A stretch of 64,000 nt of DNA from an uncultured Actinomycetes bacterium (GTDB taxonomy: Bacteria; Actinomycetota; Acidimicrobiia; IMCC26256; DASPTH01), in NCBI GenBank assembly GCA_963725775.1, contig CAVRZT010000001.1, forward strand, positions 675,568 to 739,567, in the 5' to 3' direction. The notes under the pieces are model-generated. The model did no database searches, was not told the origin of the DNA, and saw only the letters and a program-made list of their open reading frames with translations. Positions 45,163-50,907 of the stretch are shown here, piece after piece (position 1 is the stretch's first letter; every line of letters begins with the position of its first letter). Both the position numbers and the translations under genes were made by a program.

Positions 45163-46014
45163 GTGAGTAGTTGGGAAATCGTCGCGCTCGGGGCGATCGC
45201 AGGCTTCACCATCTTCCTGGGGCTCCCCATCGGCCGGATGCGGCGACCGGCCCCAGGGCTCCGGGCGCTGCTGAACGCGACGGCCATCGGCATCCTGATC
45301 TTCCTGCTCTGGGACGTGCTGTCCGCCGGGATCGAGCCGGTCGAGAGCTCGTTGGTCGCGGCGACCGACCATGGCGGATCGTGGTGGCGCTTCGTCGGGT
45401 TCAGCGTGTTGTTGACGGCCAGCGTGTCGGTCGGACTCGTCACCCTCGTGTACTACGACCGCTGGTTGCGACGCGCGACCGTGACGCGTCCGGATGGGCC
45501 CGGTGCAGCCACGGCGACCAGGCGCAACCTGTCCGCCGGTCCGATCGCTCGTCTGACGGAACCGAAGCGGTTGGCCTTCTTCATCGCGCTCGGGATCGGG
45601 TTCCACAACTTCTCCGAAGGCCTCGCGATCGGTCAGTCCGCAGCGGCCGGTGAGATCACACTCGCGGTGCTGCTCATCGTCGGGTTCGGACTGCACAACG
45701 CCACGGAGGGGTTCGGGATCGTCGCGCCGCTCGCGGCCGAGGGCGAACGGCCGTCGTGGGCATTCCTCGGGCTGATGGGTCTGATCGGCGGCGGCCCCAC
45801 CTTCGTCGGCACGATCATCGGTCAGACCTGGGTGAACGAGTGGCTGTTCACCGCGTTCCTCGGGCTCGCCGCGGGATCGATCCTCTACGTGGTGATCGAG
45901 CTTCTCGCGGTGGGGCGCAAGCTCGGGTACCGGGAGCTTGCGACGTGGGGGATCCTGCTCGGGTTGTTCCTCGGCTTCGCCACCGACATGGTGCTCGTCG
46001 CGGCGGGCACCTGA
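45163..46014 (+). CDS. ZIP-family divalent metal transporter
   Basis: 283 aa, multi-TM. Paired motifs GFHNFSEGLAIG and GLHNATEGFGI. Confidence 0.85.
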   Translation: MSSWEIVALGAIAGFTIFLGLPIGRMRRPAPGLRALLNATAIGILIFLLWDVLSAGIEPVESSLVAATDHGGSWWRFVGFSVLLTASVSVGLVTLVYYDRWLRRATVTRPDGPGAATATRRNLSAGPIARLTEPKRLAFFIALGIGFHNFSEGLAIGQSAAAGEITLAVLLIVGFGLHNATEGFGIVAPLAAEGERPSWAFLGLMGLIGGGPTFVGTIIGQTWVNEWLFTAFLGLAAGSILYVVIELLAVGRKLGYRELATWGILLGLFLGFATDMVLVAAGT

Positions 46015-46044: not shown

Positions 46045-46965
46045 TCATGAGACCGTGGTGACGACGATCATCACGATGCCGAAGACGATGCTGTAGACCG
46101 CGAACGGCACGAGGGTGCGCGTGCGGAAGAACCGGGTGAGGAAGCGCACGGCGACGTACGCCGCGAGACCGGCCGCGATGCTCCCGACCAGCACCTGCCC
46201 GCGGATGCCGTCGCCGTTGTGGCCGATCAGATCGGGCAGCTTGTAGACGCCGGCGGCGAAGATCACGGGCGTCGCGAGCATGAACGACAACTTCGCCGCG
46301 TCCTCGTGATCGAGCCCGCGGAGGAGACCCGCGACCATGGTGACGCCCGAGCGGCTGATCCCCGCGAAGAGGGCGAGGATCTGCGCGCTTCCGACGAACA
46401 CGCCTTCGCGCAGTTCGAGCGTGTCGAGATCTCGACCGACGTCATGGCCGGCGTCGGTGTGGTGGGCGTGCTCGTCGACCAGCTCGCGGGTCTCCGACCG
46501 CCGTCGGAGACGCTCGCCGGCGAGCAGGATCAACCCGTTGATCGTGAGGAAGACCGCCGCGGCGGTCGGATTGGCGAAGACGGTGCGCAAGCTGTGCTCG
46601 AACGCGAGCCCGACGATCGCCACCGGCAAGGTTCCGAGCACGAGAAGCCAGGCCATCCGCTCGGGCGCGGTCTCGATCCGACGCTTCCGGATGGACGCGA
46701 AGAATCCCTTGATCACCTCGATCCAGTCGCGTCGGTAGAAGACGAGCAGCGCGATCGCGGTGGCCACGTGCAACCCGACGAGAAACGCGAGGTAGAACGA
46801 CTCGTCGGCAGCTGCGCCGGCGACGAGCGAGTGCCAGCCGAGCAGCTCGGGCACGAGCACCGAGTGCCCGAGACTCGACACCGGGAAGAGTTCCGTGATC
46901 CCCTGGAGGATCCCGATGACGATCGCCTGGAGGTAGGTCAGGGGCGTCGTCGCCAGCGTCAACAT
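46045..46965 (-). CDS. uppP: Undecaprenyl-diphosphate phosphatase
   Basis: GILQGITELFPVSSLGH and AGISRSGVTMVAG signatures. 8 TM-like segments. Start MLTLATTPL at 46965. Confidence 0.85.
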   Translation of the reverse strand: MLTLATTPLTYLQAIVIGILQGITELFPVSSLGHSVLVPELLGWHSLVAGAAADESFYLAFLVGLHVATAIALLVFYRRDWIEVIKGFFASIRKRRIETAPERMAWLLVLGTLPVAIVGLAFEHSLRTVFANPTAAAVFLTINGLILLAGERLRRRSETRELVDEHAHHTDAGHDVGRDLDTLELREGVFVGSAQILALFAGISRSGVTMVAGLLRGLDHEDAAKLSFMLATPVIFAAGVYKLPDLIGHNGDGIRGQVLVGSIAAGLAAYVAVRFLTRFFRTRTLVPFAVYSIVFGIVMIVVTTVS

Positions 46966-46992
46966 CGCCGCCGGGAAAGTAGGGAAGTCCAG

Positions 46993-47008
46993 CTGAATCC
47001 CGGCTGAA
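46993..47008 (-). promoter_or_regulatory. Direct repeat TTCAG-N6-TTCAG (candidate response-regulator box) upstream of uppP
   Basis: The minus strand reads GCTTCAGCCGGGATTCAGCT. The proximal repeat lies 28 nt upstream of the uppP start. Confidence 0.45.
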
Positions 47009-47030
47009 GCCTCGGCGAGCGACGCTCCGA

Positions 47031-47330
47031 TCAGCCCTGGCCTTCGTGCTCCGTGGTGTCGGCCGCGCCATCTTCGTGTTCGGTGCCGGGCGTCTCCGTG
47101 GCGTCGGCCTGCTCGCCGTGCTCGGGCGCGTCCGGGACGTCGTTGGCCTCGGGCGTGTCCGGCGCGTCCGGTGCGTCGTTCGTCGTGCCTGCATGCTGGG
47201 CGGGCAGCGCCGGTGTCCGCGCCGGGGCGGAGCTCCCGGTCGTGGCGGCGGCGATCCCGGCGGCGCCTCCGAGCACCCCGAGGAGCACGGCTCCGGTCGC
47301 GACCAACTTCTTGGTGGGCAGGGATCTCAC
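47031..47330 (-). CDS. Small membrane-anchored/secreted acidic protein
   Basis: GTG 47330 lies 7 nt after AGGAGG. One hydrophobic segment (LVATGAVLLGVLGGAAGIAAA), then an acidic tail with NDAPDAPDTPEANDVPDAPEHGE repeats. High GC3. Confidence 0.5.
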   Translation of the reverse strand: MRSLPTKKLVATGAVLLGVLGGAAGIAAATTGSSAPARTPALPAQHAGTTNDAPDAPDTPEANDVPDAPEHGEQADATETPGTEHEDGAADTTEHEGQG

Positions 47331-47452
47331 GGGTGGGCCTCCTGGCGAGGTGGTCGATCGACCACGGATGGCCGAGTTGTCGGGCGGCACCATGGGACAC
47401 TCGTGCTGACCGCACGCTGAACGGACCGGAGCCCCCGGGGCGGTCGATCCCG

Positions 47453-47479
47453 CTCAGCCGTCGTTCAAGCCTCGTTCAG
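47453..47479 (+). promoter_or_regulatory. Three phased direct repeats CTCAG-N6-TTCAA-N6-TTCAG upstream of the response regulator
   Basis: 11-bp phasing. The last repeat lies 52 nt upstream of ATG 47531. Confidence 0.5.
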
Positions 47480-47530
47480 GTTCCCGGCGCGAGGCTGGGG
47501 TGTTCGGACCGGCAACTGCGAGGCCCAGGC

Positions 47531-48208
47531 ATGCGGGTGCTGATCGTCGAGGACGAGAAGAAGGTCGCGGCGGCGGTTCGGCGCGGGCTCGAGGCGGAAG
47601 GATTCGCGGTCGACGTCGCCCTCACCGGGACCGACGGACTGTGGATGGCGACCGAGCACAGCTACGACATCATCGTGCTCGACATCATGCTGCCGGGCAT
47701 GAACGGCTACAAGCTCTGCGAACAGCTCCGCGACAACGGGGACTGGACCCCGATCCTGATGCTCACCGCCAAGGACGGCGAGTACGACCACGCCGAGGCC
47801 CTCGACACCGGTGCCGACGACTTCCTCACCAAGCCCTTCTCGTTCGTGGTGTTGCTGGCGAGGATCCGAGCGCTGCTGCGCCGCACGGGCCGCTCGCGAC
47901 CGGTGATCTCGCGTGCCGGTGACCTCACGATCAACCCGGTGACCCATCGCTGCGCGCGTGGCGACGTGGAGGTGGAGTTGACCGCGCGCGAGTTCGCGGT
48001 GCTCGAGTTCCTGATGCGGCGCGCCGGCGAGGTCGTGCCGAAGTCGGAGATCCTCGACAACGTATGGGACTTCGCGTTCGAAGGTGATCCGAACATCGTC
48101 GAGGTCTACGTCCGCCATCTCCGGAAGAAGCTCGACGAGCCGTTCGGACGACAGCTGATCCAGACGATCCGGGGTGCGGGATACCGTCTCGATCCGGCAG
48201 GCGGATGA
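47531..48208 (+). CDS. OmpR/PhoB-family response regulator
   Basis: 225 aa. Receiver domain (VLDIMLPGMNG, LMLTAKD) and winged-helix (LTAREFAVLEFLM..VEVYVRHLRKKL). Confidence 0.9.
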   Translation: MRVLIVEDEKKVAAAVRRGLEAEGFAVDVALTGTDGLWMATEHSYDIIVLDIMLPGMNGYKLCEQLRDNGDWTPILMLTAKDGEYDHAEALDTGADDFLTKPFSFVVLLARIRALLRRTGRSRPVISRAGDLTINPVTHRCARGDVEVELTAREFAVLEFLMRRAGEVVPKSEILDNVWDFAFEGDPNIVEVYVRHLRKKLDEPFGRQLIQTIRGAGYRLDPAGG

Positions 48209-48212
48209 CGTG

Positions 48213-49574
48213 ATGCGGCGCATCGCGACCGTTCGCGTCCGCGTCACGCTGGCCGCGGTCGTGGTCGTCGCGGTCGCGCTCGCCGCGGGGGCGGCGTGGC
48301 TGGTCCAGGCCCATCGTGATTCGTTGACGCAGAACGTGGAGACCGCCGCCCGGCTGCGTTCCCGCGACATCGCCACGACCATCGCCGACGGCGCGTTCCC
48401 CGACGTCCTCGCGGTACCCCGAGGCGACGAGAACCTCGTGCAGGTGGTCGACGCGAGCGGCACCGTCGTCGCGGCGTCCACGAACCTCCGCGGCGACTCG
48501 CGCATCAGCACCCTCGAGCCCGGTCCGAGTGGCTACGCCGCCCGCAACCAGGTCGAGTTCGCGCAAGGCGACGGACCGTTCCGCGTCGTCGCCCGGCGGG
48601 TCGTCACCGATGCCGGCGCGTACACGGTGTACGTCGCAGGGTCGCTCGAACGCGTCGACCAGAGCACGTCGAGCCTGATCCGGCTGCTCGCGTTCGGGCT
48701 TCCCGCATTGCTCCTGATCGTCGGACTCACGACCTGGGTGGTCACCGGACACGCGCTGCGCCCGGTGGAATCGATCCGGCGCGAGGTCGAAGCCATCGGT
48801 GCGCAGGGTCTCCATCGCCGGGTCCCGGAACCGACGACGGCCGACGAGATCGGCCGGCTCGCCCGAACGATGAACGCGATGCTGGCGCGGCTCGAGGACG
48901 CCACCGAGCGTCAGCGTCGGTTCGTCGCCGACGCGAGCCACGAGCTGCGCAGCCCTCTCACCGGGATCCGGGCTCAGCTCGAGGTCGACCTCGCGCACCC
49001 GGAACACGCCGACTGGCAGGCCACCGAACGCGACGTCCTCGACGACGCGGTCCGTTTGCAGCGTCTCGTCGACGATCTGCTGGCGCTCGCGACCGTCGAC
49101 GCCGCAGGGCAGGACTCGTCGCGCCGCGAACCGGTCGACCTCGACGAGATCGTGCTCACCGAAGCCCGACGACTCCGGAGCCGAACTTCCCACGACATCG
49201 ATACCCGGGCGGTCTCCGGCGCGCAGCTCGTCGGGAACAGCGGTCAGCTCGTACGCGCCGTGCGCAACCTGCTCGACAATGCCGCGCACCACGCCGCGTC
49301 GACCGTGACCGTGACCCTGCGGGAGTCGGCGTCGAACGCGGTGCTGAGCGTCGCCGACGACGGCCCCGGCATTCCCACCGACCAGCGGGAGCGGATCTTC
49401 GAACGGTTCGCGCGCCTCGACGGCGCCCGGACCCGGGACGATGGGGGGACCGGGCTCGGGCTCGCGATCACCCACGACGTCGTGACCCTCCACGGTGGGA
49501 CGATCACGATCGACGACTGCACCGATGCAGGTGCCTGCTTCGTCGTGTCGCTGCCCCTCGCGCCCACGTCGTAG
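48213..49574 (+). CDS. Sensor histidine kinase (HAMP-HisKA-HATPase)
   Basis: H-box SHELRSPLTGI, N-box NLLDNAAHH, DDGPGIP, GTGLGLAI. Two TM segments. Alternative GTG start at 48210. Confidence 0.9.
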   Translation: MRRIATVRVRVTLAAVVVVAVALAAGAAWLVQAHRDSLTQNVETAARLRSRDIATTIADGAFPDVLAVPRGDENLVQVVDASGTVVAASTNLRGDSRISTLEPGPSGYAARNQVEFAQGDGPFRVVARRVVTDAGAYTVYVAGSLERVDQSTSSLIRLLAFGLPALLLIVGLTTWVVTGHALRPVESIRREVEAIGAQGLHRRVPEPTTADEIGRLARTMNAMLARLEDATERQRRFVADASHELRSPLTGIRAQLEVDLAHPEHADWQATERDVLDDAVRLQRLVDDLLALATVDAAGQDSSRREPVDLDEIVLTEARRLRSRTSHDIDTRAVSGAQLVGNSGQLVRAVRNLLDNAAHHAASTVTVTLRESASNAVLSVADDGPGIPTDQRERIFERFARLDGARTRDDGGTGLGLAITHDVVTLHGGTITIDDCTDAGACFVVSLPLAPTS

Positions 49575-49580
49575 CCGCGC

Positions 49581-49596
49581 TTCAGCGCCCGTTCAG
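49581..49596 (+). promoter_or_regulatory. Direct repeat TTCAG-N6-TTCAG upstream of the glycosyltransferase
   Basis: TTCAGCGCCCGTTCAG begins 7 nt after the kinase stop and ends 28 nt before ATG 49624. Confidence 0.45.
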
Positions 49597-49623
49597 GGAC
49601 GCGCGCCGACAGTCACCACTGTG

Positions 49624-50907
49624 ATGAAGCTCACGGCACGGCCCGTACCGCGTCGCGAGCTGATGGTCGCAGCGACCCTGATGCTCCTGTTGGCTGCGTT
49701 GGCCCTGCAGCTCGTCTTCTACCGCGACGGCGGGCACCACTCGATCAGCGACCTCCCGCGGGTCTTTCTCCATCGCGGGATCCGCCCGGGCGTTCTCCCC
49801 TTCGTCGACCGACCGGTCGAGTACCCGGTGCTGGCGGGCGTGTTCCTGTACCTGGCGTCATTGGTGTGGGCATCACCCTTTGGTGTCCTCCTCGTCACCG
49901 CGCTCGCAGCGAGCGCGGTGTGTGTCGCAGTGACGCTCGTGCTCGAGCGGAGGTTCGGGGCGCGGGCGTGGCGGTGGGCGCTCGCCGCACCGCTCGTGCT
50001 CTACGCGTTCCAGAACTGGGACGTGTTCGCGGTCGCGGCGATGCTCGCCGGGCTGCTCGCCTTCGAACGGCACCGGGACGGCGCGGCAGGGGTCTGGCTC
50101 GGTGTCGGTGCGGCCATCAAGCTCTTTCCCGCGGTCGTCGTGCTACCCCTCGCCGCGCTGCGGTGGTCGGTCGGGGACCGACGCGGGGCGATCCGGCTCG
50201 TCGTGGGCGCGCTCGGCACGCTCGCGCTCGTCAACCTGCCGTTCCTGATCGTCAATCCGCCGGGATGGTGGTGGCCGCTGGCGTTCCAGTCGCATCGCAA
50301 CGCGACCTGGGGCAGTGCGTGGTTCTTGCTCCTCCGCGTAGCGGAGCTCCCGGTCCACGGCGTCGGGGGTGCGCACGTGGCGAACCTCGTGTCGCTGCTC
50401 GCACTCGTCGCCGCGCTGGCGTGGCTCACGTTCGTGACCTTCGAGCGGAAGCTGCCGCCATTCCACGCCGCCGCGGCGGCGGTCGTGATCTTCGTGCTGT
50501 GCAACAAGGTCTACTCACCGACGTACGACGTGTGGCTCGTCGTGTTCTTCGTGGCCGTTCCCCTGAGCCGTCGGCTCTGGGTCGCGTTCTGCGCAGTGGA
50601 CCTCGCGGTGTTCGTCACGGTGTACGGCTACTTCGCCGCGATCGAACCGGTCTCGTTCGTGCGCACCGTGCTGCCCGTCCTCGTCATCGTCCGTACCGGT
50701 GTCCTGCTGGCCGTGGTCGCGGTGGCGACGCGCCGAACCAACGCCGGGAGAGATCTCGAAGCGGTGCCGGTCGGTGCCGACGCCCGCGGCTGGCTCCGCG
50801 CAACTCAGCCGGTGGCGAACTCGTCGTCGGCGTCGTGGGGGAGCAGCTCCGGCGTCCAGCGGTGGTCGCCGTCGTGGTCGGGTGTCAGGAGGCACCGCAG
50901 CCGGTAG
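49624..50907 (+). CDS. GT-C-fold membrane glycosyltransferase (DUF2029/GT87-like, polyprenol-phosphate-sugar dependent)
   Basis: About 10 TM segments with a conserved early loop (VEYPVLAGVF) and FQNWDVFAV..GAAIKLFPAVV. The last 40 or so codons look non-protein-like, so the 3' end is uncertain. Confidence 0.65.
   Translation: MKLTARPVPRRELMVAATLMLLLAALALQLVFYRDGGHHSISDLPRVFLHRGIRPGVLPFVDRPVEYPVLAGVFLYLASLVWASPFGVLLVTALAASAVCVAVTLVLERRFGARAWRWALAAPLVLYAFQNWDVFAVAAMLAGLLAFERHRDGAAGVWLGVGAAIKLFPAVVVLPLAALRWSVGDRRGAIRLVVGALGTLALVNLPFLIVNPPGWWWPLAFQSHRNATWGSAWFLLLRVAELPVHGVGGAHVANLVSLLALVAALAWLTFVTFERKLPPFHAAAAAVVIFVLCNKVYSPTYDVWLVVFFVAVPLSRRLWVAFCAVDLAVFVTVYGYFAAIEPVSFVRTVLPVLVIVRTGVLLAVVAVATRRTNAGRDLEAVPVGADARGWLRATQPVANSSSASWGSSSGVQRWSPSWSGVRRHRSR

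Follow-up and report, generated by a model that had tools for sequence, protein, structure and literature searches.

TTCAG direct repeats in an envelope gene cluster of an uncultured Acidimicrobiia bacterium: probable operators of the adjacent OmpR/PhoB-family regulator

The 64-kb stretch of contig CAVRZT010000001.1 analyzed here (the window), from an uncultured bacterium of the Acidimicrobiia, contains a gene cluster in which a direct repeat, TTCAG-N6-TTCAG, recurs upstream of uppP (undecaprenyl-diphosphate phosphatase), of a gene for a small acidic protein, of an operon encoding a two-component system (TCS) made of a response regulator and a histidine kinase (RR-HK operon), and of a gene for a GT87-family glycosyltransferase. 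These TTCAG-repeat elements are non-random and conserved, and they have a fixed geometry and gene context. Their arrangement makes it probable that they are activator operators of the OmpR/PhoB-family regulator encoded in the cluster, replacing the -35 element of four promoters, and that this regulator positively controls its own operon together with a cell-envelope regulon.

Four conserved repeat elements in the window

The repeat pattern was counted in the window and compared with dinucleotide shuffles. Exact TTCAG-N6-TTCAG occurs twice against 0.02 expected, the same value as the chance estimate of the original prediction, and 0 of 100 shuffles contained two copies. When up to one mismatch was allowed, four copies were found against 1.0 expected, and all four lie inside one 2.6-kb locus. 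They are all intergenic, each pointing at its downstream gene, and they are spread over three intergenic regions of the cluster, the divergent region holding two of them back-to-back. The original prediction had listed three of these sites, which are real and recur here at the same coordinates, but the list was incomplete: the fourth site, at 47421-47406 on the minus strand, had been omitted. A position weight matrix (PWM) built from other genomes only gave 24-31 bits to the four window sites and 2.8 bits to the next best window position.

The predicted uppP operator, TTCAGCCGGGATTCAG (46993..47008, minus strand), is an exact match with two pentamers in 11-bp phase (PWM 24.4 bits). It ends 27 nt before the uppP ATG at 46965, and a site at the same position upstream of uppP is also present in loci L001, L003, L005, L006 and L012 of the related genomes described below. 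The predicted operator of the small-protein gene, TTCAGCGTGCGGTCAG (47406..47421, minus strand), is a one-mismatch match that reaches the window maximum of 31.0 bits. The predicted RR-HK operator (47453..47479, plus strand; 26.8 bits) consists of three phased half-sites, CTCAG-N6-TTCAA-N6-TTCAG, and is separated from the regulator ATG (47531) by 51 nt; its TTCAA variant is kept in L001, L002, L003 and L022. The predicted GT87 operator, TTCAGCGCCCGTTCAG (49581..49596, plus strand; 30.0 bits), is again an exact match, located 7 nt past the kinase stop codon, with 27 nt to an ATG at 49624 and 24 nt to a GTG at 49621.

Conservation was assessed in 80 loci fetched by kinase homology alone from one-genome-per-species contigs, amounting to 663 kb in total or about 9 kb per genome. 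Most of them come from metagenome-assembled genomes of Acidimicrobiia or 'Actinomycetes', and the others from Chloroflexota, Mycobacteriales, Pseudonocardiaceae, Blastococcus, Amycolatopsis and Streptomyces. These loci contain 80 copies of the exact repeat where shuffles predict 0.3, an enrichment of about 250-fold, and one-mismatch repeats number 83 against 9.7 expected. In 38 loci (the window and 37 others) the regulator gene is preceded by the element at a distance of 20-120 nt, and in about 20 a second element directly follows the kinase stop codon, irrespective of the next gene.

As for the other genes preceded by the element, they encode UppP (6 loci), GT87 or GT87-GT2 fusion proteins (11 loci), small anchored acidic or PepSY proteins (more than 12 loci), LPG_synthase_TM or LPG_synthase_C proteins, i.e. 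MprF-like lipid lysinylation functions (4 loci), an ABC ATPase (2 loci) and a DoxX-Rieske protein (2 loci). It also precedes, divergently from the regulator gene, the gene of an exported protein or lipoprotein family of about 240 aa without Pfam match in 13 loci (L080, at 3162-2449, L025, L044, L046, L049, L053, L054, L060, L061, L063, L071, L072 and L075). A search of the window for relatives of the LPG synthases, of the PepSY proteins and of this exported family gave no match. The recurrence of the element upstream of UppP, GT87 or GT87-GT2, MprF-like and PepSY or acidic protein genes across relatives points to envelope remodelling as the output, and agrees with the small envelope regulon put forward by the original prediction; the mention of stress and bacitracin in that reading is speculation.

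The fusion proteins deserve a separate description. In L007 (5439-7658), the gene that follows the kinase-proximal site encodes a 739-aa protein with a GT87 membrane domain and a C-terminal GT2 domain, and similar fusions are found in L009, L011, L017 and L022. Its GT2 domain resembles a polyprenol-phosphate sugar synthase, in which case the synthase of the carrier-linked sugar and the transferase would be joined in one protein.

Promoter anatomy and the proposed mode of action

At all four window sites a -10-like hexamer of the form NANNNT lies exactly 11 nt past the proximal pentamer of the repeat. The predicted -10 of the uppP promoter is TACTTT (46976..46981, minus strand), with a predicted start near 46969 and a leader of 3-4 nt; that of the small-protein promoter is CATGGT (47389..47394, minus strand; start near 47382); that of the RR-HK promoter is GAGGCT (47491..47496, plus strand; start near 47503); and that of the GT87 promoter is GACAGT (49608..49613, plus strand; start near 49620). 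The same spacing holds in the other genomes: of the 82 exact sites, 65 have NANNNT at offset 11, with at most 7 for any other offset. In addition, the string 'gcgaggctg' covering the -10 region of the RR-HK promoter is kept in L001, L002 and L006.

The logo drawn from 100 unique sites reads gTTCAGc-N4-gTTCAGc-N10-(C/G/T)A-N3-T-G, with uninformative flanks. It corresponds to 7-bp direct repeats separated by a 4-bp spacer, with a -10 devoid of the usual first T coming 10 nt further on, and C occupies the third position of the pentamer in all 100 sites. The half-sites are thus 10-11 bp apart, about one helical turn, and the repeat holds a fixed position relative to the -10 and overlaps the -35 region; both features are those of OmpR/PhoB-type direct-repeat operators. 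A third half-site (nTCAG, 11 nt upstream; 47453-47457 in the window) is seen only at regulator promoters, in 18 of 38 cases against 0 of 64 elsewhere.

No canonical -35/-10 promoter was detected by a sigma-70 consensus scan of positions 46800-49800, and no -35 hexamer is conserved in the 100-site logo. Together with the -10 devoid of its first T, this gives the promoters the appearance of being activator-dependent. The Rfam scan of the whole window returned no family, so that no RNA element accounts for the intergenic conservation. A potential hairpin at the RR-HK site (gcctcg...cgaggc) was considered and rejected, only its downstream (-10) arm being kept in L001, L002 and L006.

The start codons lie close to the predicted hexamers. 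Those of the GT-C, UppP and LPG synthase genes are found 20-27 nt past the repeat, which corresponds to 3-10 nt past the hexamer; for the GT-C targets of the other loci, the distance from the end of the site to the start codon is 20-24 nt. In many loci of the metagenome scan presented below, the start codon lies 5-7 nt past the hexamer. Start codons this near the hexamer imply leaderless or nearly leaderless mRNAs, which indicates that the promoters are largely of this type and that the uppP and GT87 transcripts would belong to it.

Based on these features, the following mechanism is proposed. The kinase would phosphorylate the regulator, and a head-to-tail dimer of the latter would bind at about -40 to -23, stand in for the missing -35 contact and recruit RNA polymerase carrying the housekeeping sigma factor. 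Four promoters would be driven in this way, namely those of the RR-HK operon itself (with the extra third half-site), of uppP, of the small acidic protein gene and of the GT87 gene, and the outcome would be a polyprenyl-phosphate carrier-dependent remodelling of the cell envelope. The regulator is proposed as an activator of these four -35-less promoters since the geometry is the one known from well-studied activators in its family. We infer the binding of the regulator, the sign of its action and its physiological role from sequence comparison.

The elements might also be genuine operators of the local regulator from which it represses, its binding at -40 to -23 blocking RNA polymerase. The sites do overlap a region that the polymerase must occupy, and OmpR-family regulators can repress from such a position, as in the PhoP repression complex (PMC11825685). 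However, no -35 is conserved, the -10 lacks its first T and no canonical promoter was detected in the region; moreover, the geometry is the same as that of the activator BqsR and of the PhoP activation complexes. Repression is therefore regarded as unlikely, and activation by the regulator is retained as the probable mode of action.

Link to the adjacent regulator and relation to known systems

The presence of the motif varies with two residues in the recognition helix of the regulator. When the loci were sorted by the residue pair that follows EVY[VI] in the recognition helix, the motif was present in 21 of 21 loci with RH, in 17 of 20 with RR and in 2 of 12 with GY. The two variable helix positions align with Ser219 and Tyr220 of Mycobacterium tuberculosis PhoP; in the PhoP structure, the side chain of Tyr220 is one of those touching the DNA major groove (PMC4832192).

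A few more distant homologues have another version of the element. In L019, L041 and L059, repeats of the CTCAG-N6-CTCAG type are found in place of TTCAG upstream of the regulator gene; the helix pair is GY in L019 and HY, with Y at the second variable position, in L041 and L059. This suggests that operator and helix may have drifted together in these three loci.

In a second approach, public metagenome contigs were scanned with the DNA pattern alone. At least 120 stretches were obtained, many of those listed being chance matches in low-GC DNA. Among the matches listed, 103 downstream open reading frames (ORFs) were found, of which at least 9 encode OmpR-type regulators, at least 8 PepSY proteins and at least 1 a GT87 protein. 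Six of the contigs (L081, L085, L111, L124, L171 and L172) show the element followed by a small PepSY gene, an OmpR-type regulator gene and a kinase gene, and their regulators are 37-42% identical to that of the window. Some of these PepSY-RR-HK contigs have a low GC content and are probably not from Actinomycetota. On this basis, the TTCAG operator may extend to BqsPQRS/DbfQRS-like modules of other phyla. A further class of downstream gene, which was not seen in the kinase-selected loci, comprises small exported glycine-zipper 2TM proteins (Pfam Rick_17kDa_Anti), encoded by at least 8 of the 103 ORFs among the matches listed (e.g. in L100, L118, L137, L165 and L198).

Taken together, the roughly 250-fold enrichment, the fixed -10 spacing, the recurrence upstream of the regulator operon and of envelope genes, and the covariation with the recognition helix strongly support the earlier proposal that the repeats are the operator of the adjacent regulator. 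Several points nevertheless weigh against this interpretation and its extension to an envelope regulon. The loci were chosen via the kinase, which makes the adjacency to the regulator gene partly a matter of design, and the metagenome scan and the helix covariation remove this selection bias only in part. The association between helix pair and motif (Fisher 4e-6) carries no phylogeny correction. Among the loci with a kinase identity below 55%, which are the more distant ones, about half are devoid of the motif, the UppP and GT87 targets occur in a minority of loci, and the regulon beyond the autoregulated operon varies; coverage was about 9 kb of each genome. Finally, the preference for activation over repression is drawn from promoter anatomy only.

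The design of the sampling also leaves some room for another reader of the signals whose gene lies outside the cluster, for instance an OmpR-type paralogue, a SARP-like protein or an alternative sigma factor, since co-occurrence was partly built in by the kinase-based choice of loci and such genomes carry many OmpR-family paralogues. Yet 38 loci have the site at the promoter of the regulator itself, the presence of the site tracks the recognition-helix residues of that same regulator, and the pattern-only metagenome scan lands again before OmpR-type regulator genes or PepSY-RR-HK operons. Regarding a sigma factor, a helically phased direct repeat is unlike the way in which sigma reads a -35, and it is the variable spacer, not a pentamer, that occupies the usual -35 position. 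This alternative is considered very unlikely. The least tenable explanation, namely that the repeats arose by chance or from base composition and have no function, is extremely improbable: the motif is short (10 specified bases) and about one one-mismatch match per window is expected, but the counts of exact copies in the window and in the other genomes far exceed chance, and all four window sites are intergenic, gene-facing and accompanied by the hexamer at offset 11. The local regulator thus remains the probable reader of the elements.

The string TTCAG-N6-TTCAG and its variants were not found in the literature searched, and a review of Streptomyces two-component systems contained no matching system. 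The closest known operators are those of BqsR (TTAAG-N6-TTAAG), CreB (TTCAC-N6-TTCAC), PmrA and M. tuberculosis PhoP.

In Pseudomonas aeruginosa, the box TTAAG(N)6TTAAG, which overlaps the -35, is bound by BqsR (CarR), a regulator that also controls its own operon (PMC4358008). The elements described here resemble this operator by their 5+6+5 tandem repeat overlapping the -35 region and by the presence of a site at the own operon of the regulator, whereas the third base of the pentamer is C instead of A, which sets TTCAG apart from the TTAAG box. PepSY proteins encoded beside a TCS are a widespread arrangement that is already known; DbfQ, the PepSY protein of DbfQRS in Vibrio, modulates the kinase of that system (bioRxiv 10.1101/2025.03.24.645060). 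As in bqsPQRST and DbfQRS, small exported PepSY genes adjoin the TCS in related and metagenome loci, while the small protein of the window is without PepSY domain. The output of both systems may concern the cell surface and cationic or membrane stress. Neither RExxE, the iron-binding motif of BqsS, nor HExxE is present between the two transmembrane segments of the kinase. Further differences are that the host is a monoderm-type member of the Acidimicrobiia and not a proteobacterium, that the orthology of the regulators is only putative, and that the predicted targets are UppP, GT87 and MprF-like functions instead of the polyamine or lipopolysaccharide genes of BqsRS.

In M. tuberculosis, PhoP binds TCACAGC-N4-TCACAGC as a dimer; the site overlaps the -35, and the bound dimer displaces sigma region 4 (PMC4832192, PMC11825685). 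The elements of the window, when written gTTCAGc-N4-gTTCAGc, are likewise 7-bp direct repeats with a strict 4-bp spacer, but the consensus GTTCAGC has only CAGC in common with TCACAGC and differs in its left half. PhoP is among the best PDB sequence matches of the regulator. Its recognition helix reads N212-V-V-E215-S-Y217-V-S-Y220 as compared with N-I-V-E-V-Y-V-R-H here, with differences at positions 216, 219 and 220, and regulon and sensor also differ between the two systems.

CreB and PmrA are different regulators, both of Proteobacteria. The pentamer of the CreB operator (cre tag) is one base off (G here versus C) and its 11-bp phasing is the same. The PmrA operator is a pentamer/hexamer direct repeat with similar 11-bp phasing and another pentamer sequence. 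PmrA controls ArnT, a GT-C enzyme using an undecaprenyl-phosphate sugar, to which the GT87 enzyme and UppP of the window may form a functional parallel. In Escherichia coli, the PhoB pho box (CTGTCAT-N4-CTGTCAT), a direct repeat of 7+4+7 design, stops 10 bp short of the -10 and replaces the -35. Counted as the 7-mer gTTCAGc, the spacing of the elements described here is identical to that of the pho box, while sequence, signal and regulon differ.

The best NCBIfam matches of both TCS proteins belong to the heavy-metal CusR/CopR/CzcR families. The regulator scored 248.3 with TIGR01387 (cutoff 279.2) and the kinase 206.5 with TIGR01386 (cutoff 292.55); since both scores are below the curated cutoffs, the two proteins were not assigned to a heavy-metal system. 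Copper boxes are inverted repeats, in contrast to the direct repeats at the present sites. As for MprA, a CTCAG-like repeat has been linked to it, but the motif of Corynebacterium glutamicum MprA is TKTTAAGAAM, and no claim is drawn from the comparison; loci whose regulator has the MprA-like recognition helix 'EVYVGYLRRK' carry no TTCAG element.

More broadly, the element could be the mark of a large, cross-phylum clade of PepSY-associated TCS related to BqsRS/DbfQRS and commanding a polyprenyl-phosphate-dependent envelope programme, a reading that we put forward tentatively and that is rather less probable than its opposite. If true, this clade would control UppP recycling, GT87 (alone or together with a GT2 sugar-carrier synthase) and MprF-like lysinylation in Acidimicrobiia, other Actinomycetota and Chloroflexota. 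Its programme would then be the monoderm equivalent of the PmrAB-Arn response to cationic or metal stress, and most of its mRNAs would be leaderless. What is new here is the operator sequence and the clade; the kind of regulatory element is well known and involves no new regulatory principle. TCS of this family are frequent among uncultured soil Acidimicrobiia, and none of them has been studied; the family now gains a precise predicted operator, four predicted transcription starts and a link to undecaprenyl-phosphate recycling, GT-C glycosylation, lipid lysinylation and PepSY accessory proteins. Genome annotation of uncultured Acidimicrobiia can benefit from this, as the PWM can be used for regulon prediction in any complete genome of the group. 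Blastococcus sp. CT_GayMR16 (L064) is a cultured relative that carries the element and in which the system could be studied.

Genes of the cluster and its surroundings

The gene assignments of the original prediction (BacA/UppP, OmpR-type regulator, HAMP/HisKA/HATPase kinase and GT87 protein) were confirmed with Pfam and NCBIfam. The regulator, the proposed binder of the elements, is a 225-aa protein (47531..48208, plus strand) with the receiver and winged-helix domains that define the OmpR/PhoB family (Response_reg, 104 bits; Trans_reg_C, 93.9 bits), and its recognition helix is NIVEVYVRHLRKK. The sensor histidine kinase gene follows on the same strand (48213..49574, although the start could also be GTG 48210). 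Its product has two transmembrane segments and HAMP, HisKA and HATPase_c domains, and no Pfam family was matched by its extracytoplasmic domain of about 130 aa.

Among the predicted targets, uppP (46045..46965, minus strand) encodes an undecaprenyl-diphosphate phosphatase of the BacA family (Pfam BacA, 239 bits; NCBIfam NF001395, 435.3 versus a cutoff of 394). The GT87 gene (49621..50907, plus strand) encodes a membrane glycosyltransferase with a GT-C fold (Pfam GT87, 33.8 bits versus a cutoff of 25). In the original prediction its start was placed 28 nt past the site; the GT-C nature of the product holds, but by the start-codon spacing rule of the near-leaderless targets the start is most likely GTG 49621 rather than ATG 49624.

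The third target encodes a membrane-anchored acidic protein of 99 aa (47031..47330, minus strand), which would start at GTG 47330 after an AGGAGG ribosome-binding site. No Pfam family and no PepSY domain was detected in this protein. It displays a weak, composition-prone similarity to PepSY-bearing proteins encoded at the same position in L023, L024 and L028, and is also weakly similar to the acidic protein of L022. The longest ORF would begin at ATG 47393, which was rejected as start codon because it falls within the predicted -10 (47389-47394). Automatic annotation would probably over-extend this gene to ATG 47393.

A gene for a ZIP-family metal transporter (45163-46014, plus strand) is located next to uppP, in convergent orientation. 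It was not counted as a target, the sole candidate site being found in L020 (1676-1691), without hexamer and 85 nt from the gene. ZIP genes recur beside the TCS in L005, L012, L020, L022, L030 and L098, which hints at a possible link of the system with metal cations.

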